Below, in pieces: positions 40,537 to 60,745 of a DNA stretch of 64,000 nt (position 1 is the stretch's first letter; every line of letters starts with the position of its first letter). A program made the position numbers and the translations under genes. Under the pieces are notes generated by a model, which saw only the letters and a program-made list of their open reading frames with translations, had not been told where the DNA came from and did not search any database. Source of the DNA: a phage; assembly GCA_018296565.1 (NCBI GenBank), contig GCA_018296565.1_3935.1. One strand, given 5' to 3'.

Positions 40537-41280
40537 ATGAGTAATATTATCGCATTTACTGGAAAGGCACGTTCTGGAAAAGACACCTCATGTTCTATTG
40601 TGAAGAACATCTTAGAGGATGAGTATGGCTACAATGTTGCTGTAATGGCCTTTGCAGACAACCTTAAACTATCTGCATCAAAGATATTTGACTTGACTTG
40701 GAATGACCTGTACGGTGAAACTAAAGAGACTCCACAGGTTTTTGACTTATCATACCCTGAACTGATGTTTAAAGTTACGGAAGCTATGGAGTTCACCTTC
40801 AGAGATGAACGTTACCATATGGACTTCAAGCTTATGTCAGAGTTAACCGGACGATTAATCATGGAGCTTAAGAAGGTTGCTAAACCGACTCTATTGACAC
40901 GTCTGGGGTTTAGTAAAAAGTATAAATTCTCATCAAGACAAATTCAACAGATTTGGGGTACTGAAGTTGTCCGTAAAGTAATGGGCGACAAGTTCTGGTC
41001 TAAAGACCTTGAAAAAAGAATGGTTAGATTCCATGAAATGTGCTCACTTAGAAACCAATATGGTTTTGTCTTAATCAGTGATTTAAGATTTGACTCTGAA
41101 GCTGAATGGCTGAGTAGATTTGCACACCAAACTATTGAAGTAAAAAGAGACAATGTGGACAAAGTTTCATCACATGTTTCAGAAAATGGGATTTCTACAA
41201 AATATGAGCGTGACATTATTCATAATAATGGTACTCTTGCAGACCTTGAGAACAAGCTAAGAGCCATCATTAAAGTTTAA
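40537..41280 (+). CDS. Deoxynucleoside monophosphate kinase
   Basis: 247 aa; N-terminal P-loop IIAFTGKARSGKDT matches T4 gp1-type dNMP kinase pattern. Confidence 0.6.
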   Translation: MSNIIAFTGKARSGKDTSCSIVKNILEDEYGYNVAVMAFADNLKLSASKIFDLTWNDLYGETKETPQVFDLSYPELMFKVTEAMEFTFRDERYHMDFKLMSELTGRLIMELKKVAKPTLLTRLGFSKKYKFSSRQIQQIWGTEVVRKVMGDKFWSKDLEKRMVRFHEMCSLRNQYGFVLISDLRFDSEAEWLSRFAHQTIEVKRDNVDKVSSHVSENGISTKYERDIIHNNGTLADLENKLRAIIKV

Positions 41281-44861: not shown

Positions 44862-45902
44862 ATGGAGAAGTACACATTAAAAAAACTTCCCGATTCAGTT
44901 ACACATGTCTTTATTGACTCTGACAGTATTGCCTATAAAGGTGCTTGTGTAGTTGAGAAAGCAAAATATAAATATGTCAATAAACTCACAGCAGAAGAAT
45001 CTGAACCATTTGATAATGCAAAAGATGCTGCAAGATGGTTAGCAGACCAGAGAATCCTTGTGGAAGAACTTGGCCTGACATTTGATGAAGATGAATGGGA
45101 AAGACAGACTTGGAAAGAAGCTAAGAGTGAAAAAGAAGCTATCATGGCTACTCAGCAGGTTCTTCAGGAATGGCTTAAGGTTGTTGGTAAAGAAAGAACT
45201 TGGGTAGGTTATTTAACAGAGAAGGGTGTACATAAACATAAAGACATTAAAGGTCTTGAGCACCAATATCAAGGTAACCGTAAAGAGGCTGTCACACCAA
45301 CACACTTAGTTGCTTGTCGTGAATATCTTCTATCAAGACCAGAGTTCAAGCTCTTAAAGGGAGGCTTCGAAGCCGATTCCATCGTAATTGCTAAAGCTGA
45401 AAAGATGGGTAAGAAGGCTGCTCTTATGAGTATTGACAAAGACCTTCGACAAGCTGAAGGGACTTATTGTATTGATATGACTTATGAAAAGTCACCACTA
45501 ATTTTTATTGCTGATAATAATGTTGGTGATATCTGGGATTGTCCTATCAAATCAAAACCAAAAGCTGCAAAAACTGTTGGTGTAGGTTTTAAATTTTTGT
45601 GTTATCAGGCTGTTGCTGGAGATAATGCAGACAACTACTTCGGCCTTAAAGGTGCTGGCAAAGTAGCTGTGATGAATGCTTTAGATGGTAAAGAGACCTA
45701 TAAAGAGTGTCTTGACGCTATCTATGAACTCTATGCTAAAAAAGAGTCTTACACCTATGTGTCATGGGATGGACAGACTGTCACAAAGACACCATTAGAA
45801 CTAATGGAACAGCATTTCTGGATAGCATATCAAGAGAGAAATCCAAAAGATAATTTCTCTTTTAAGAAATATAATTGGGAGCCGTGTATGAATGAAGATT
45901 AA
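44862..45902 (+). CDS. 5'-3' exonuclease / flap endonuclease
   Basis: 346 aa; N-terminal acidic cluster VFIDSDS and SIDKDL motif typical of FEN/5'-nuclease PIN-domain proteins. Confidence 0.6.
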   Translation: MEKYTLKKLPDSVTHVFIDSDSIAYKGACVVEKAKYKYVNKLTAEESEPFDNAKDAARWLADQRILVEELGLTFDEDEWERQTWKEAKSEKEAIMATQQVLQEWLKVVGKERTWVGYLTEKGVHKHKDIKGLEHQYQGNRKEAVTPTHLVACREYLLSRPEFKLLKGGFEADSIVIAKAEKMGKKAALMSIDKDLRQAEGTYCIDMTYEKSPLIFIADNNVGDIWDCPIKSKPKAAKTVGVGFKFLCYQAVAGDNADNYFGLKGAGKVAVMNALDGKETYKECLDAIYELYAKKESYTYVSWDGQTVTKTPLELMEQHFWIAYQERNPKDNFSFKKYNWEPCMNED

Positions 45903-46389
45903 AGGATTTGGCAATTGTCCCACCTATGGTCATTGGGTATCTTTATGTGGGGAAGTTGACCCCACTAAACATTTTGGTTTTGTCTATTTAGTACACTGTA
46001 AGAAAACCGGACAATACTATATTGGAAAGAAACAGCTTAATAGTGTGACCAAAAGAAAAGTTGCGGGTAAGACTCGGAAGAAGGTAGTCACTAAGGAAAG
46101 TGATTGGATGACTTATGAGACTTCTTCTGAGTATATTAAAAAAGATATTGAGAGTTTTGGAAAAGAGTTTTTTGACTTTTACATTATTCAAACCTACTAC
46201 ACAAAAGGTGGTCTAGTTTATGGTGAAGCAAACCTTCAACATAAATTCGATGTAATGACAAAAAGGATTGACTCTAAGCTCAGACTCTTCTACAATGCCA
46301 ATATTGCAGCAATTAAGTTCATTACTAAAGAAACTTATGAAGATGCTGAAAAAAGAATCCATAAGGTAATGAAAGCAAACTGTGCTTGA
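45892..46389 (+). CDS. GIY-YIG nuclease (homing endonuclease-like)
   Basis: 165 aa; GIY-YIG module FVYLVHCKKTGQYYIGKKQ; start overlaps 3' end of the exonuclease gene. Confidence 0.6.
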   Translation: MKIKGFGNCPTYGHWVSLCGEVDPTKHFGFVYLVHCKKTGQYYIGKKQLNSVTKRKVAGKTRKKVVTKESDWMTYETSSEYIKKDIESFGKEFFDFYIIQTYYTKGGLVYGEANLQHKFDVMTKRIDSKLRLFYNANIAAIKFITKETYEDAEKRIHKVMKANCA

Positions 46390-46410: not shown

Positions 46411-46641
46411 ATGTTTAACAAAAGTAAAGCTGTGAGTCATGTAGCAAAAGTTGACAGCAAGATTGAAGAACTTGAGCGCATTCTTGCAAATGCCAGAGAG
46501 TCAATAATTAAAGAGGTTGAAGCTGTTGAATCTCAAATGCAGCACCTAATGCTTAAACGTCAAGAGCTACGTGAGCATCTGGAATATATTGAAACACGAG
46601 AGCTAAAGGTTAACAGATTTTTAAGGAGTCCAAATGTTTAA
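46411..46641 (+). CDS. Hypothetical coiled-coil protein
   Basis: Track ORF starts at a TTG at 46396; internal ATG at 46411 taken as start; helical. Confidence 0.4.
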   Translation: MFNKSKAVSHVAKVDSKIEELERILANARESIIKEVEAVESQMQHLMLKRQELREHLEYIETRELKVNRFLRSPNV

Positions 46642-47389
46642 CTCAAGAGAAGCAGTAAAAAACTGGAATCTTCGTTGTGGAAACACTCAAAAGCAACCTT
46701 ACAGTGATGAGTATTGGGAATCTTTAAAATCCCAGTCTTTGTGTATGCTTGAAGAAGCAAAAGAGCTTGTAAAAGCAATTGAAGAGAAAGACCCCATTGA
46801 GACACTAGATGCTCAGGCAGATTTGCAATATGTTCTTGATGGTCTGATTTATCTGTCACAGCATGACCATAACGGTGCTATGAAAGCTGTTTGCCATAAT
46901 AATGACCTGAAGTACACAGACGACTATGAAGAAGCTTTAAAACGTCTTGCAGATATTGAGAAGCGTACTGGTCAAGAGTGTATCATCAGAATGTCAGTAG
47001 TTGATGGCAAAGAATGGTATGCAATTGTTCGTGCAGCCGATGGGAAGATTATGAAGCAATCTAATCTCCCTAAAGTTCAGCTTGGTGAATACATTGTAGA
47101 ACTTGAAAGCCAAGAACTTTTTGTGGTAGTATCTGAGACATGCGTTATCTGCAAAGGTATTGTATGTAGCTTAAAGGATTTGGGTGTAGATGGTTTTGTA
47201 GAAGTTAATCCAATTACCTCTAAAGCAGATAAAGATTTCTGTAAAGAGAATGGACTATGGATTGCAGATATTGTCTACTATGATGGTGAGCAGTTCCATG
47301 TAACCTCATACCCAAAACTGAATTATGATGCTAATAACCTGAAGTGCTGGTTAAAAGGGGTTGGTTATAATGGATTCACAGAACATTAA
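46634..47389 (+). CDS. MazG-like NTP pyrophosphohydrolase domain protein with unknown C-terminal domain
   Basis: 251 aa; N-terminal region has the all-alpha MazG-type acidic pattern (EEAKELVKAIEEKD...DAQADLQYVLDGLIYL); C-terminal 130 aa Cys-containing, unknown. Confidence 0.45.
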   Translation: MFNSREAVKNWNLRCGNTQKQPYSDEYWESLKSQSLCMLEEAKELVKAIEEKDPIETLDAQADLQYVLDGLIYLSQHDHNGAMKAVCHNNDLKYTDDYEEALKRLADIEKRTGQECIIRMSVVDGKEWYAIVRAADGKIMKQSNLPKVQLGEYIVELESQELFVVVSETCVICKGIVCSLKDLGVDGFVEVNPITSKADKDFCKENGLWIADIVYYDGEQFHVTSYPKLNYDANNLKCWLKGVGYNGFTEH

Positions 47390-56798: not shown

Positions 56799-56810
56799 GC
56801 AGATACTATA

Positions 56811-56840
56811 AGGGAACTGTAAAGGTTCCCTTTTTATTTT
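56811..56840 (+). terminator. Rho-independent terminator
   Basis: Hairpin agggaac-tgtaaa-ggttccc followed by TTTTT. Confidence 0.6.
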
Positions 56841-56849
56841 GGAGATAAT

Positions 56850-57365
56850 ATGTATCTGTCAAATCTGAAACGTTCTGCTGCAATGTCAGTGTTAAGACTC
56901 AGTTTTGAGGAACGTCAAGAGTTCATTGACTCCCACCAATACGACCCTTCCAACTCCAATCACATGATTCTCTGGAATCGTGAGAGTACTCGTGAAAGAG
57001 CATTATTTCGATATTACCCACACTACACCATAGACAACCTGTATGAATGCTTTGTTGTGAAGAACACCATTACAGTACTCAATAAACTTTGCAGATACAC
57101 AGGCAGTCAATCCTTCACATTAGGCCACCACAAACCTGTTACAAAAGGTGGTGAACATCACTGTACAAACTGGTTTATTCAGACTAAAGCTGATAACCAG
57201 AAGCAAGGAGATAGTCTTTTAAGTACCCCTAAGATGACCTATGAAGAGCAAGAGAGATATATCAAAAATAATATGCCAGATGTGCTTGACAACAACTATA
57301 CAGATTTGGCAATATCTCTCCTGTTGAAGTTCGAGATAGTTTATAGGGCAACTTACAATGGCTAA
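56850..57365 (+). CDS. HNH endonuclease
   Basis: 171 aa; HNH core LGHHKPVTKGGEHHCTNWFIQTKADNQKQGD. Confidence 0.6.
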   Translation: MYLSNLKRSAAMSVLRLSFEERQEFIDSHQYDPSNSNHMILWNRESTRERALFRYYPHYTIDNLYECFVVKNTITVLNKLCRYTGSQSFTLGHHKPVTKGGEHHCTNWFIQTKADNQKQGDSLLSTPKMTYEEQERYIKNNMPDVLDNNYTDLAISLLLKFEIVYRATYNG

Positions 57366-57636
57366 AGAAAAGTGGGAGATTTTATCATTAGTCAGTGAAG
57401 GTGGTAATGGTTGTGAAATGTACATGATACGTGGTCATGTCCCAGAGCCAATTGCACTTGAGATGGTAAATAATTATACAGATGGTTCTTACAAAGACTT
57501 AGGAGAACCAACTGTCAAACAGCAATGGGTAAAGCCTGTGCCAGATAGTACAGGAAACTGTAGTGTACTTTATCACGTTGTAGACCCTGTGAAATGCAAG
57601 TCTGCAATGGCAGTAACTAACGTAACTTTTGATTGA
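57358..57636 (+). CDS. Hypothetical protein
   Basis: 92 aa ORF, overlapping start with HNH gene stop. Confidence 0.45.
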   Translation: MAKEKWEILSLVSEGGNGCEMYMIRGHVPEPIALEMVNNYTDGSYKDLGEPTVKQQWVKPVPDSTGNCSVLYHVVDPVKCKSAMAVTNVTFD

Positions 57637-57647
57637 GAGAGAAAATT

Positions 57648-58529
57648 ATGAAAACATCTATACGTGTTACAGTTCATTCACCAACTAAAGGAACTCATGA
57701 AGAAGAGTTTAACATCATCCAATTTCCTTCTGGTGAGATTGGTGGACACTTTTCACCAGAGTTTGTTGATTTTACTGCTTATGCTGCATCATCCATCAAC
57801 AATGTGATTATGATTGTAAAAGGTTATGATAAAGACACATTGTTTGCTGTAGCACTTGCTAAAGAAGCAATTGATGATTTAATTCCTCATGATTATGCTT
57901 TAAAGACTGTCATCTTTTACTACTTACCAAATGCACGATATGACCGTCACATGTTTAAAGGCGATGCAGCAGCTTTGAAGGTTTTTGCTAAACAGGTTAA
58001 TGCAATGGGGTTTGGTGCAGTCTGTGCAGTTGACCCTCACAGTTACGTTCCAGATAACCTGTTTAACTGCTTCCAGAGTATTCCTCAAAAGGAGATTGCA
58101 GTCCACTATGCAAATGACCCACTGGTTGATTACTTAGTGGCCCCAGATGCAGGTGCTGCTAAGAAGGTTGCAGAAACCGCTAAAGAGGTGGATAAACCAT
58201 ATATCACAATGTCTAAAGTACGCAACCTCAAGACTGGTGAAATCACTGGTATGCGAATCCTTGACGATGTTGATTTGACAGATAAAACCGTCATGATTCT
58301 GGATGATATTTGTGATGGAGGACGAACCTTCATAGAAGCAGCTAAACATCTTCGTGAAGCAGGTGCAAAACGAGTGGAACTCTATGTAACACATGGTATC
58401 TTCTCTAAAGATGTTGAAAACCTTCTTGACAATGGTATTGACCATATCTACACTACAAACTCTTTAGGGGAAGCTAAAGACCGTGGCTTAACACATTATA
58501 GCCAAGTTACTGTAGCAAACCTTGATTAA
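57648..58529 (+). CDS. prs: Ribose-phosphate pyrophosphokinase (PRPP synthetase)
   Basis: Track ORF starts at a TTG at 57633; ATG at 57648 follows a gagaga RBS. PRPP-binding motif VMILDDICDGGRTF. Confidence 0.7.
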   Translation: MKTSIRVTVHSPTKGTHEEEFNIIQFPSGEIGGHFSPEFVDFTAYAASSINNVIMIVKGYDKDTLFAVALAKEAIDDLIPHDYALKTVIFYYLPNARYDRHMFKGDAAALKVFAKQVNAMGFGAVCAVDPHSYVPDNLFNCFQSIPQKEIAVHYANDPLVDYLVAPDAGAAKKVAETAKEVDKPYITMSKVRNLKTGEITGMRILDDVDLTDKTVMILDDICDGGRTFIEAAKHLREAGAKRVELYVTHGIFSKDVENLLDNGIDHIYTTNSLGEAKDRGLTHYSQVTVANLD

Positions 58530-58537
58530 AACTTTAT

Positions 58538-58560
58538 AGGGGCTTCCAAGCCCCATTTTA
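58538..58560 (+). terminator. Weak hairpin terminator between prs and nampt
   Basis: Hairpin ggggc-ttccaa-gcccc followed by a short T-rich tract. Confidence 0.35.
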
Positions 58561-58574
58561 AGAGAGATTAAAAG

Positions 58575-60356
58575 ATGACTAAATCACTTTATGCAGTACC
58601 AGCAGGTTTAAATGCAGATGCTTACAAATCTGGTCATGTTTACCAGTATCCTAGCGCAACAGAGTACTTGATGTTCAACCTGACACCACGTAGTGATAAA
58701 TGGTTTAACAGCCCTTTAGCAATTGACGGTGTAGTGGCTTTTGGTATTCAACGTTTTGTTAAAGATTACTTGATAGACCACTGGAATGCCACTTTCTTTG
58801 AACGTGATAAAAAAGAAGCAATTGACGAAATCTTAGAAGTCATGCATGGTGTTCTTGGTAAAGATGCTATCGGTCGAGAGCATTGGGAAGCACTTCACGA
58901 CTTAGGTTATCTACCAGTTGAAGTCTACGCTGTAGAAGAAGGCACAGTTGTCCCTATGCGTGTCCCAATGATTGTTTTCCAGAACACTGTTTCAGGTTTC
59001 CATTGGGTAGCAGGTTATCTGGAAGATGCTTTCTCTGCTGAGATTTGGAAGGCTTGTACCATTGCAACTATTGCATTGCACTACAAACGTATCTGTAAGA
59101 GGTGGGCTGACCTTACTTGTGATAACGACTTGCATTTGCCTTATCAGTGCCATGACTTTGCTATGCGTGGTATGTCCGGCTTTACTGATGACGCATTTAA
59201 TGCTGTAGGCCACTTGACCAGCTTTAAAGGAACTGATAGCTTCCCTGCCGTATATACAGCTAAACGCATCTACGGACAGTCTTACCCAGTCTCTGATATT
59301 GGTAGCTCTGTACCAGCCACTGAGCACTCTGTAATGTGTGCAAACATTGCTTGGGAAGGTGGTAACGAATTGATTGAAGAAGAAAGACGCTTTAAAGGTG
59401 AATTACAAACCTTCCGTCGTTTCTTAACAGAAACTTACCCAACGGGTATTGCAAGTATTGTTTCAGATACTTATAACTTCTGGAGAACTGTATCAGTGAT
59501 ACTGCCAGAACTCCGTAAAGAGATTATGGAACGTGACGGCAAGCTGGTAATTCGTCCTGACTCTGGAGACCCTGTGCATATTGTCACAGGTTATAAAGCA
59601 ATCCACTTAGAATGTGCTAAGAAGGCTTATTATGAACATCTTAGCAAGCTGGAAGCTAGTGATACAATGCTGAAATCTGTTCTGAACATGAAGCTTGAAA
59701 ACATCAACTATGGTATTGCTGGATGGCTACTGTCAGAAGGCTACGAAATGGTTGTTGACCGAGAAGACTTTGAAGTTGCTGATACAGTACTGCTGAAGAA
59801 TGCTTATATGGTTGGTTCTGCAAACGTTGTAACACGTCCTGTAGCAGAGATTGATGGAGCTATTAAGACCCTGTATAACATCTTCGGAGGGACTATCAAC
59901 TCCAAAGGTTTTAAAGTACTGGATGAGCACATCGGACTTATTTATGGTGACTCTATCACGTTGGAACGTGCAAACGAAATATTGAAGCGTTTGTATGAAA
60001 TGGGTTTTGCAAGCTCTAACGTAGTGTTTGGTGTAGGCTCTTACACTTACCAGTACATGACTCGTGACACCTTTGCATTTGCTGTCAAAGCAACTCTTGC
60101 AAGCATTGGTGGTAAGGAGATTATGCTTGCAAAAGACCCTAAAACAGATAGTGGTGTGAAGAAGTCTGCCTTTGGTGGTGTAGCGCCTATGTGGGATGGT
60201 GATAAATTGAAAGCTGTAGATGGCTATGGATTCCAGAGCTTTGCAGATGCACTTGAACATCCAGCTTGTGCTTTACGTTTAGTCTTTAGCGACTCTGAGC
60301 AGTTTGGCTACACAACTCTTGGCGATATTCGAAATAATATTGACAAGCAGCTTTAA
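58575..60356 (+). CDS. nadV: Nicotinamide phosphoribosyltransferase (Nampt/NadV)
   Basis: 593 aa; matches remembered Nampt blocks: DAYKSGH, HDFAMRGMS...KGTDS, SIVSDTYNFW, IRPDSGDP. Confidence 0.8.
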   Translation: MTKSLYAVPAGLNADAYKSGHVYQYPSATEYLMFNLTPRSDKWFNSPLAIDGVVAFGIQRFVKDYLIDHWNATFFERDKKEAIDEILEVMHGVLGKDAIGREHWEALHDLGYLPVEVYAVEEGTVVPMRVPMIVFQNTVSGFHWVAGYLEDAFSAEIWKACTIATIALHYKRICKRWADLTCDNDLHLPYQCHDFAMRGMSGFTDDAFNAVGHLTSFKGTDSFPAVYTAKRIYGQSYPVSDIGSSVPATEHSVMCANIAWEGGNELIEEERRFKGELQTFRRFLTETYPTGIASIVSDTYNFWRTVSVILPELRKEIMERDGKLVIRPDSGDPVHIVTGYKAIHLECAKKAYYEHLSKLEASDTMLKSVLNMKLENINYGIAGWLLSEGYEMVVDREDFEVADTVLLKNAYMVGSANVVTRPVAEIDGAIKTLYNIFGGTINSKGFKVLDEHIGLIYGDSITLERANEILKRLYEMGFASSNVVFGVGSYTYQYMTRDTFAFAVKATLASIGGKEIMLAKDPKTDSGVKKSAFGGVAPMWDGDKLKAVDGYGFQSFADALEHPACALRLVFSDSEQFGYTTLGDIRNNIDKQL

Positions 60357-60370
60357 AAGTATATGATAAG

Positions 60371-60392
60371 AGGCTCCTACGGGAGCCTTTTT
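60371..60392 (+). terminator. Rho-independent terminator after nampt
   Basis: Hairpin aggctcc-tacg-ggagcct followed by TTTT. Confidence 0.6.
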
Positions 60393-60409
60393 AATTTCTG
60401 GAGAAGACT

Positions 60410-60745
60410 ATGAAAATCAAAGAAATGAACATCAACATTATCTTAGAAGAACGTTGGGAGAACATCAAGAAGCCTGAAGATGGCCATAAGTTCCTCAACA
60501 AAATTTTAGTAGCAGCTAAAGAAGAACTGACTGGAAAGGTTGCAGCAGCAATCACAATAAAGGTTTGTGTAAAAGGTCTTCCACAACATCACCAGTTTGC
60601 ACTTGACGAGTTTAAAGAAAGCTTCTACAATCCAAACAAACAGATGCTTGAAAGTAACTTTGCAGTATCTACAAGTATCGTTCATGACAGAAGCTTTATC
60701 CTTTACAAAAATATGAGAGGTGAGTCATGCAAGCATATTGGATAG
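60410..60745 (+). CDS. Hypothetical protein
   Basis: 111 aa ORF, ATG start. Confidence 0.45.
   Translation: MKIKEMNINIILEERWENIKKPEDGHKFLNKILVAAKEELTGKVAAAITIKVCVKGLPQHHQFALDEFKESFYNPNKQMLESNFAVSTSIVHDRSFILYKNMRGESCKHIG

Follow-up and report, generated by a model that had tools for sequence, protein, structure and literature searches.

A Felixounavirus gene pair of the Prs and Nampt families is very probably a close copy of the Bas63 NAD+ reconstitution (NARP1) operon

Two adjoining genes in a 64,000-nucleotide stretch of phage DNA (the window) encode a Prs-like and a Nampt-like protein, and the question they raise is whether these products make PRPP and then NMN, as the initial annotation proposed, or rebuild NAD+ by another route. 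Judged by its sequence, the window is a Felixounavirus genome, matched by ~260 related phage records (DNA identity mostly 90–95%); it covers ~64 kb of a ~87-kb genome, the last ~23 kb of which lie outside it. An ORF check of the window confirmed the adjacency noted at the outset, the two genes being intact, neighbouring ORFs on the + strand between 57633 and 60356, with a 45-bp spacer between them:

57648..58529, + strand: putative Adps (ADPR-pyrophosphate synthetase), the Prs-like first NARP1 enzyme, 293 aa, by homology to Bas63 gp79 and the EC6 and SpbetaL1 Adps proteins
58575..60356, + strand: putative Namat (nicotinamide ADPR-transferase), the Nampt-like second NARP1 enzyme, 593 aa, matching Bas63 gp80 and SpbetaL1 Namat

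The mechanically called ORF of the first gene begins with a TTG at 57633 that overlaps the preceding gene's stop codon. The ATG at 57648 is the likelier start, because the homologous Bas63 gp79 has 293 aa and starts MKT, and because a purine-rich GAGAGAG lies just upstream of this ATG.

The gene pair is very probably a Felixounavirus NARP1 (NAD+ reconstitution pathway 1) operon, with activities as in its characterised homologues. NARP1 (Adps plus Namat) was discovered in Felixounavirus Bas63 (bioRxiv 10.1101/2024.02.11.579819), and the locus, a close copy of the operon in which that discovery was made, is in this sense already known. The pathway is an important and recently described means of phage escape from NAD+-depleting immunity (Thoeris, DSR1/2, SIR2-HerA, SEFIR, Kongming). 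Under the proposed mechanism, host defence (SIR2-HerA/Nezha, type I Thoeris, DSR1/2, SEFIR, Kongming and similar systems) would cleave NAD+ to ADP-ribose and nicotinamide; Adps would then form ADPR-PP by an ATP-dependent pyrophosphorylation of ADPR at its terminal ribose, and Namat would exchange the pyrophosphate of ADPR-PP for nicotinamide, yielding NAD+ in one step, its preference for ADPR-PP over PRPP being conferred by an adenine-binding clamp made of a loop (SCL) and a helix (SCH). This two-step route would need neither PRPP, NMN nor an NMN adenylyltransferase, and the final step that had been supposed to be host-supplied or encoded elsewhere is therefore not missing.

Osterman et al. 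themselves began with the annotation-based PRPP/NMN prediction for the Bas63 operon and then disproved it (bioRxiv 10.1101/2024.02.11.579819). In Bas63-infected cells ADPR-PP was detected only when a defence system was present and in an operon-dependent manner; knockout of the operon lowered plating on SIR2-HerA about 20-fold, a defect specific relative to the no-system control, and the operon partly restored NAD+ independently of host pncC/nadR (bioRxiv 10.1101/2024.02.11.579819). Purified SpbetaL1 Adps pyrophosphorylated ADPR and gave no measurable product in a PRPP-synthetase test, while SpbetaL1 Namat preferred ADPR-PP, from which it made NAD+ directly, and formed only NAD+ when both donors were supplied (bioRxiv 10.1101/2024.02.11.579819). 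In vitro activities are reported for the SpbetaL1, P. foliorum and DyoEdafos enzymes, the evidence for Bas63, whose protein ‘did not purify well’ (bioRxiv 10.1101/2024.02.11.579819), being the ADPR-PP found in vivo; crystal structures of SpbetaL1 Namat (9W5W/9W5X) have also been published (PMC12774641). Against these Bas63 and SpbetaL1 data, the claim that Prs makes PRPP and Nampt makes NMN was wrong, Adps yielding ADPR-PP and Namat NAD+ directly. The suggested role in NAD+ counter-defence was right, as the Bas63 knockout data indicate, and for the window's operon we infer the same role from the 98% and 78% identity of its proteins to those of Bas63. The same two activities are likewise predicted for the proteins encoded in the window, the divergent Adps allele and the insert-bearing Namat alike.

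Profile searches bore out the Prs/Nampt naming at the level of protein family, in Pfam, NCBIfam and PHROG alike. The first protein matched Pfam Pribosyltran (8e-12) and Pribosyl_synth (4e-10) and PHROG 619 (9e-97), and it passed the broad subfamily model TIGR01251 ribP_PPkin (124.5 bits vs a cut-off of 113); it fell far under the cut-off of every equivalog-level Prs model (for example 104.8 vs 296 and 64.4 vs 438), and the Pribosyltran_N domain was not detected in the Pfam search, so that the two-domain Prs architecture was not found. It was identical to Bas63 gp79 at 229/293 residues (78%) and to the Adps of phage EC6 at 291/293, the EC6 entry being flagged as Namat-associated in Table S1 of Osterman et al. 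and belonging to the 67 entries of the published Adps table with the window-type N-terminus. The window protein scored 100 bits with SpbetaL1 Adps (36% identity) and 62 bits with E. coli Prs, and no Prs in the PDB exceeded 69 bits. The catalytic lysine of SpbetaL1 Adps, K162 (equivalent to B. subtilis Prs K197), has its counterpart in K190, which occupies an invariant column of the Adps alignment within the motif SKVRNLKTGEI. The window and SpbetaL1 Adps proteins also have in common the motifs PDAGAAK, K-x-RN-x-x-TGEI and PHS, which E. coli Prs lacks. Taken by proxies rather than a tree (EC6 identity, bit scores and Adps-only motifs), these features assign the protein to the phage-specific Adps clade and not to cellular Prs. 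The window protein and E. coli Prs have superfamily, fold and PRT-type nucleotide-binding loop in common, yet they are 29% identical over 195 aa and differ in their flexible-loop and substrate-loop motifs.

The second protein matched Pfam NAPRTase (2e-34) and NAMPT_N, PHROG 448 (4e-201) and NCBIfam NF006629 (468 bits, cut-off 405). It is identical to Bas63 gp80 at 580/593 residues (98%), and proteins near-identical to it are tagged ‘Adps-associated’ in Table S2 of Osterman et al. The best PDB sequence match was SpbetaL1 Namat 9W5W/9W5X (E 2e-128), and the AF2 model (pLDDT 93) likewise matched 9W5X/9W5W best (TM 0.95), so that by both sequence and fold bacterial NadV and human NAMPT ranked behind SpbetaL1 Namat. 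The catalytic residues are kept (D15, Y17, F195, R198, D221, A248, H251, R327, D329 and G458-D459), where the reference core in SpbetaL1 numbering is D13, Y15, F189, R192, D215, the catalytic His, R306 and D308. These residues, the fold and the superfamily are common to cellular Nampt/NadV, which lacks the Namat clamp; both parts of the clamp are recognisable in the window protein:

58692..58721, + strand: selectivity-clamp loop (SCL), aa 40–49, SDKWFNSPLA, identical to Bas63, from the alignment with SpbetaL1 Namat
60036..60068, + strand: selectivity-clamp helix (SCH) motif, aa 488–498, GSYTYQYMTRD, from the alignment

The third residue of the SCL is Arg, Lys or Tyr, and after a Lys or Tyr stacking falls to the fourth residue, as in Bas63 (PMC12774641). 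The window loop (S40-D41-K42-W43) is a case of Lys followed by the next residue, K42-W43 supplying the predicted adenine-stacking residue, whereas SpbetaL1 Namat stacks the adenine with Arg40. The SCH signature is GS-X-Phi1-X-Phi2-X-Phi3-TRD, in which the aromatics at motif positions 3 and 7 stack on the adenine (PMC12774641), and in the window these are Y490 and Y494. SpbetaL1 Namat aligns at this site with GSFTYQYNTRD, KVP40-like Nampt with GGGLLQQLDRD and human NAMPT with GSGGGLLQKLTRD, the latter two being without the SCH aromatic residues in the alignment. Because of this adenine clamp and the Adps-type motifs, we read the window proteins as NARP1 and not as Prs/Nampt salvage. NARP1 is recognised by an Adps-clade gene no more than 10 genes away from a Namat homologue, and here the two lie side by side on one strand. 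Comparison with Bas63 shows purifying selection on both genes (omega 0.04–0.17).

The closest known system is that of Bas63 (Escherichia phage JohannRWettstein, bas63_0079-0080), of the same genus and with the same gene order and neighbours (NrdG-gp77-gp78-Adps-Namat-rIIA). Its Namat, 98% identical, has both inserts described below, the SCL and the SCH, and the two operons also agree in the stem of the intergenic hairpin and in their downstream context. It differs in its Adps, which is 78% identical and whose first ~150 codons have 66–77% DNA identity, and in bas63_0081, a small gene 3' of the Bas63 Namat gene that is absent from the window. The NARP1 of Bacillus phage SpbetaL1 (Adps WIT26982, Namat WIT26983) is more distant (Adps 36%, Namat 47% identical), although its Namat has a fold like that of the window protein (TM 0.95).

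Classical salvage, in which a phage Prs would make PRPP, Nampt would make NMN and a host NMN adenylyltransferase/deamidase (NadR, PncC/NadD) would finish NAD+, fits the Pfam, NCBIfam and PHROG names, and a host step would be required for it, no phage NMNAT having been found. SpbetaL1 Namat keeps PRPP-to-NMN activity in vitro, so some NMN production is possible. Yet the operon-dependent metabolite in Bas63 was ADPR-PP and not a PRPP/NMN signature, no product of SpbetaL1 Adps could be measured in the PRPP test, the Namat of that phage made only NAD+ when given both donors, the window Namat has an adenine clamp that is absent from Nampt, and the window Adps lies far under the equivalog Prs thresholds with Pribosyltran_N undetected. 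For the Bas63 operon this explanation is largely refuted, and for the window we regard it as very improbable.

A general auxiliary metabolic module, which would supply phage replication with more NAD+ or nucleotide precursors in hosts with and without a defence system alike, is suggested by the neighbourhood, which includes the nucleotide-metabolism genes NrdA/B/D/G, thymidylate synthase, DHFR and dNMP kinase. The plating defect of the Bas63 knockout was specific to SIR2-HerA, however, ADPR-PP appeared only with a defence system, and the substrate ADPR is abundant only after NADase activity, which together leave such a module with hardly any probability. That a true Nampt works here with a phage NMN adenylyltransferase encoded outside the window, as in KVP40, can practically be dismissed: the window, at ~64 kb, falls short of the full ~87-kb genome and phage Nampt homologues without Adps do work so, but the window Namat is about 28% identical to KVP40-like Nampt vs 47% to SpbetaL1 Namat and has the SCH motif, an Adps gene adjoins it while NARP2-clade proteins are found in phages without Adps (bioRxiv 10.1101/2024.02.11.579819), and the complete, collinear Bas63 genome has no annotated NMNAT or Nudix gene.

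The KVP40 NARP2 system (NadV-NatV of a Vibrio phage; Nampt plus bifunctional Nmnat) resembles NARP1 in using a Nampt-superfamily enzyme, restoring NAD+ and countering NAD+-depleting defence, but it proceeds from PRPP to NMN and then through Nmnat, and has no Adps partner. The earlier remark that no NMNAT is recognisable in the window held: among 20 ORFs scanned beyond the NARP1 pair there was no NMNAT (CTP_transf_like), Nudix, Macro/Adpp or RyR/RyDEP domain, and the annotation of the whole Bas63 genome likewise lists none of them. The lack of an NMNAT is consistent with the two-step NARP1 pathway, and a nonexistent missing NMNAT step had been inferred because the public gene names mislead; ‘ribose-phosphate pyrophosphokinase’ and ‘nicotinamide phosphoribosyltransferase’ are misleading names for about 260 Felixounavirus records. 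As a close copy of the operon of the original discovery, the locus adds no new biology, and its practical value lies in annotation.

Two extended forms of NARP1 have the core Adps and Namat in common with the window, namely NARP1-AP (Adps, the Macro-domain phosphatase Adpp and Namat; Vibrio phage Gary) and the RyDEP-associated NARP1 of mycobacteriophage DyoEdafos. Unlike these, the window operon has no Macro- or RyR-domain protein within or beside it. NARP1-AP is recognised by a Macro-domain protein within two genes of the NARP1 genes, and no Macro domain (PF14519, PF01661, PF20016) was found in the flanking ORFs of 88, 106, 171, 92, 111 and 58 aa, most of which are too short to hold one. The operon is therefore the basic two-gene NARP1, and it is predicted to be unable to use ADPR-1P from aRES systems.

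Between the window Adps and the Bas63 Adps tested in vivo, 22% of residues are different, most of them in the N-terminal half, where the gene contains:

57648..58100, + strand: divergent allelic segment, the N-terminal ~150 codons of Adps, 66–77% DNA identity to Bas63

The flanks of this segment have 90–97% DNA identity to Bas63, and within it dN is 0.245 and dS 2.4 (saturated), giving an omega of about 0.1. Segment identity is bimodal across phage records, and recombinant alleles, such as that of SBA-1781, are present in the published table. The saturated dS, the low omega and these recombinants point to the window Adps being the second of two old alleles that have been exchanged by recombination among Felixounaviruses. 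Positive selection for the divergent N-terminal half was rejected, dS being saturated (2.4) and omega about 0.1.

The ~100 extra residues noticed in the Nampt-like protein are real (593 aa vs 491 in SpbetaL1 Namat, 491 in human NAMPT and 497 in KVP40-like Nampt) and are mainly accounted for by two inserts:

59343..59390, + strand: insert 1, aa ~257–272, IAWEGGNELIEEERRF, net about +15 aa vs SpbetaL1 Namat in the alignments
59592..59855, + strand: insert 2, aa 340–427 (88 aa), net about +76 aa, a compact alpha/beta subdomain

The site of insert 1 is length-variable across the family. Insert 2 is a confidently folded, integrated subdomain in the AF2 model (omega 0.10), and no structural relative of it was detected. 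Both are common to Bas63 and a clade of 580–610-aa phage Namats, under purifying selection, and both are missing from every Namat or Nampt so far purified or crystallised, SpbetaL1 Namat (491 aa, without the ~76-aa subdomain and ~15-aa insert) included. Insert 2 was rejected as an intein or mobile-element remnant on account of its integrated fold and purifying selection; at 88 aa it is also too short for an intein, and on a reading of its sequence it lacks intein-like boundary residues. That the subdomain at aa 340–427 and the ~15-aa insert form a functional module rather than neutral decoration is a tentative proposal that we consider rather unlikely. Such a module could possibly let Adps dock onto Namat and so channel the labile ADPR-PP, or act as a regulatory or anti-inhibitor element; no stable complex is formed by the insert-free Adps and Namat of SpbetaL1. 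An insert-mediated interaction might co-vary with the two old N-terminal alleles of Adps.

Several further features frame the operon on the + strand:

56810..56832, + strand: terminator-like hairpin, 9-pair stem then T-run, dG -14.4 kcal/mol, z -2.7
56850..57365, + strand: 171-aa ORF, Bas63 gp77 homologue, in the same terminator-bounded block, PHROG 3500 (1e-90)
57358..57636, + strand: 92-aa ORF, Bas63 gp78 homologue, directly 5' of Adps, PHROG 4726 (1e-59)
58539..58559, + strand: intergenic hairpin between Adps and Namat, GGGGCU-UCCA-AGCCCC then AUUUU, dG -12.5, z -1.95
60368..60391, + strand: intrinsic-terminator-like hairpin, 12 nt past the Namat stop, 10-pair stem then T-run, dG -16.6 kcal/mol

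The first hairpin lies 5' of a four-gene block ending with NARP1 and may bound the transcription unit on that side; the last hairpin (z -3.4; 0/200 shuffles fold as well) likely marks the unit's end. The 171-aa ORF has a weak PHROG HNH-like match and a sub-threshold Pfam DUF7167 match (dN/dS 0.08 vs Bas63), and the 92-aa ORF (dN/dS 0.045 vs Bas63) had no Pfam match in the profile search; both are treated as block neighbours of NARP1, without membership in NARP1 being implied. A PADLOC scan was not meaningful, producing only weak ShosT/PsyrT matches through the generic PRT fold. The intergenic hairpin was not supported as a true terminator, the terminator scan making no call and the fold z being only -1.95; it is weak in that capacity, and its role may lie in transcription attenuation or RNA stability. 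Its stem is kept in Bas63 with a different loop, and in some relatives the Adps-Namat spacer holds an HNH endonuclease gene.

Two open reading frames lie side by side on the + strand and fill the interval 57633–60356 exactly, as expected from the initial annotation, which had placed two adjacent genes there for a PRPP synthetase (Prs) and a nicotinamide phosphoribosyltransferase (Nampt):

57648–58529, + strand: Adps, 293 aa (mechanical ORF from TTG 57633, likely start ATG 57648)
58575–60356, + strand: Namat, 593 aa

The first gene is likely to span 57648–58529, since its orthologue in the Felixounavirus Bas63 (Escherichia phage JohannRWettstein) has 293 aa beginning MKT, and a purine-rich GAGAGAG precedes the ATG at 57648. 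Profile searches matched the first protein to Pribosyltran, Pribosyl_synth, TIGR01251 and PHROG 619 and the second to NAPRTase, NAMPT_N, NF006629 and PHROG 448, so that both families named earlier hold at superfamily level. NrdG is encoded upstream of the pair and rIIA downstream.

The Bas63 counterparts, genes 79–80 of genome record MZ501086, were the starting point of Osterman et al., ‘Phages reconstitute NAD+ to counter bacterial immunity’ (bioRxiv 10.1101/2024.02.11.579819). The annotation-based expectation in that study was that Prs makes PRPP and Nampt makes NMN, with host salvage completing the pathway, and this was then disproved. Deletion of genes 79–80 lowered plating on SIR2-HerA cells about 20-fold and worsened NAD+ depletion, and a new metabolite, ADPR-pyrophosphate (ADPR-PP), builds up in infected SIR2-HerA cells. 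The purified homologue of gene 79 from Bacillus phage SpbetaL1 gave no measurable product in a PRPP-synthetase test and pyrophosphorylated ADPR, while the homologue of gene 80 converted ADPR-PP and nicotinamide to NAD+, which was the only product when PRPP and ADPR-PP were supplied together. The names Adps, Namat and NARP1 were coined in the same work, which reported NARP1 in 859 phage genomes. The biological role proposed for the window pair, NAD+ counter-defence, is very probably right, and the proposed chemistry (PRPP, then NMN) very probably wrong, the same expectation having been disproved for the Bas63 operon in favour of the ADPR-PP route.

The window pair is a close copy of this founding NARP1 example, and the locus is already known. 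About 260 phage records match the region, nearly all of them Felixounavirus (FelixO1-like; hosts Escherichia, Salmonella and Shigella), with DNA identity reaching about 95% in the best match, and the names in these records are ‘ribose-phosphate pyrophosphokinase’ and ‘nicotinamide phosphoribosyltransferase’. The window Namat is identical to Bas63 gp80 at 580 of 593 positions without gaps, and near-identical Namats (fjerdesal, KhF3, Bas63) carry the label ‘Adps-associated’ in the Osterman et al. listing. The window Adps shares 229 of 293 residues with Bas63 gp79 and 291 of 293 with a protein of phage EC6, an entry given as Namat-associated in the published Adps table, where 67 entries have the window-type N-terminus. 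The window and Bas63 are collinear in gene order and in the flanking DNA. Bas63 has an additional 345-bp gene, bas63_0081, directly after Namat (6838–7184 of L002, the Bas63 locus), which is absent from the window (60408–60412). From this degree of similarity, the proteins of the window phage very probably behave like their Bas63 and SpbetaL1 counterparts.

Residue-level comparison separated the window Adps from Prs. The window and SpbetaL1 Adps proteins have in common the motifs PDAGAAK, K-x-RN-x-x-TGEI and (D/E)PHS, for which PDIGGVVR, DKRRPRANVS and DLHA stand in E. coli Prs. The catalytic K162 of SpbetaL1 Adps corresponds in the alignment to K190 of the window protein. Bit scores of the window Adps were 100 against SpbetaL1 Adps and 62 against E. 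coli Prs, and no Prs entry in the PDB gave more than 69; the protein missed every equivalog-level Prs threshold widely, and the profile search detected no Pribosyltran_N domain in it.

For Namat, structures of the SpbetaL1 enzyme with nicotinamide (9W5X) and with NAD+ (9W5W) were reported by Lan et al. (NAR 2026, PMC12774641), who also set out criteria distinguishing Namat from Nampt, the second being a variable clamp loop that adds one more stacking residue. The window Namat has GSYTYQYMTRD at aa 488–498 and the clamp loop S40-D41-K42-W43, both as in Bas63, together with all catalytic-core residues; in the alignment, the aromatic residues are missing from a KVP40-like Nampt and from human NAMPT (used as an outgroup only). 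Entries 9W5W/9W5X were the best PDB sequence match (E 2e-128) and also the best superposition (TM 0.95) of a confident AF2 model (pLDDT 93, pTM 0.91), with H. ducreyi NadV and human NAMPT behind.

The initial annotation had also reported no recognisable NMN adenylyltransferase (NMNAT), and this was borne out: a Pfam scan of 20 ORFs beyond the NARP1 pair, which took in mid-size ORFs without annotation and every small neighbour of the pair, detected neither an NMNAT domain of the cytidylyltransferase-like kind nor a Nudix, Macro or RyR domain in any of the 20, and none of these is listed in the full annotation of the collinear Bas63. Absence of NMNAT is what the two-step NARP1 pathway predicts. 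As no Macro or RyR domain was found in the scanned ORFs, the operon is assigned to the basic NARP1 form, distinct from NARP1-AP, which has the Macro phosphatase Adpp, and from the RyDEP-associated kind.

The roughly 100 extra residues noticed earlier in Namat are real and fall into two main inserts, the remainder being small additions to the clamp loop and close to the ends of the protein:

aa 340–427 of Namat: larger insert, net about +76 aa
aa ~257–272 of Namat: smaller insert, net about +15 aa

Both inserts are present in Bas63 Namat and are therefore compatible with function in vivo. Length varies across the family at both sites: forms of about 495 aa (SpbetaL1, enterobacterial chromosomal homologues) have neither insert, some homologues have 10–40 aa inserted, and the full subdomain formed by the larger insert occurs in a clade of phage proteins of 580–610 aa whose identity falls as low as about 45%. 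Four chromosomal homologues of about 496 aa (P0068, P0071, P0072 and P0084; Klebsiella, Cronobacter, Erwinia and Kluyvera) are 46–48% identical, are annotated as nicotinate phosphoribosyltransferase and carry the Namat-type clamp motif GSYTYQYNTRD or GSFTYQYNTRD; they may be bacterial NARP1 copies like those reported in Paenibacillus foliorum.

Divergence of Adps from its Bas63 counterpart is concentrated in codons ~1–150 (the first ~450–500 bp), a mosaic segment where window 57600–58100 shows 66–77% DNA identity against 90–97% in the flanks. Synonymous sites in this segment are saturated relative to Bas63 with omega about 0.1, identities across phage records are bimodal, and recombinant combinations occur in the published Adps table; two old N-terminal alleles are therefore circulating and recombining among Felixounaviruses (window type, ~155 records; Bas63 type, ~90). 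Recent adaptive change is rejected, given the saturated dS, the low omega and the recombinants.

The pair lies in a four-gene block (56810–60391) bounded by two hairpins:

56810–56832: terminator-like hairpin, upstream edge
60368–60391: terminator-like hairpin, downstream edge

Within it, a 171-aa ORF (PHROG 3500, weakly HNH-like) and a 92-aa ORF (PHROG 4726) precede Adps and Namat; both are conserved in Bas63 as gp77 and gp78, which the published deletion of genes 79–80 left in place (bioRxiv 10.1101/2024.02.11.579819). A shorter hairpin in the Adps–Namat spacer (58539–58559) keeps its stem in Bas63 with a different loop. In Salmonella phages Si3 and ST11, this spacer holds a 492-bp HNH homing endonuclease gene (loci L007, 1206–1697, and L008, 863–1354); in ST11, Adps is truncated and the Namat annotation is split into two CDS, and either decay or a sequencing error may lie behind this.

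Elsewhere in the window, the product of ORF 40537–41277 is a deoxynucleotide monophosphate kinase (PF21448, 5e-21). Kongming, an NADase defence, is switched on by a deoxynucleotide kinase of viral origin, and co-expression of SpbetaL1 NARP1 in E. coli neutralised it (PMC12774641); the window phage may therefore carry both trigger and antidote. A 251-aa ORF (46634–47386) has a MazG-like PRA-PH pyrophosphohydrolase domain (PF01503, 9e-6), and the adjoining 165-aa ORF (45892–46386) encodes a SegE-type GIY-YIG homing endonuclease (PF19835, 9e-28).
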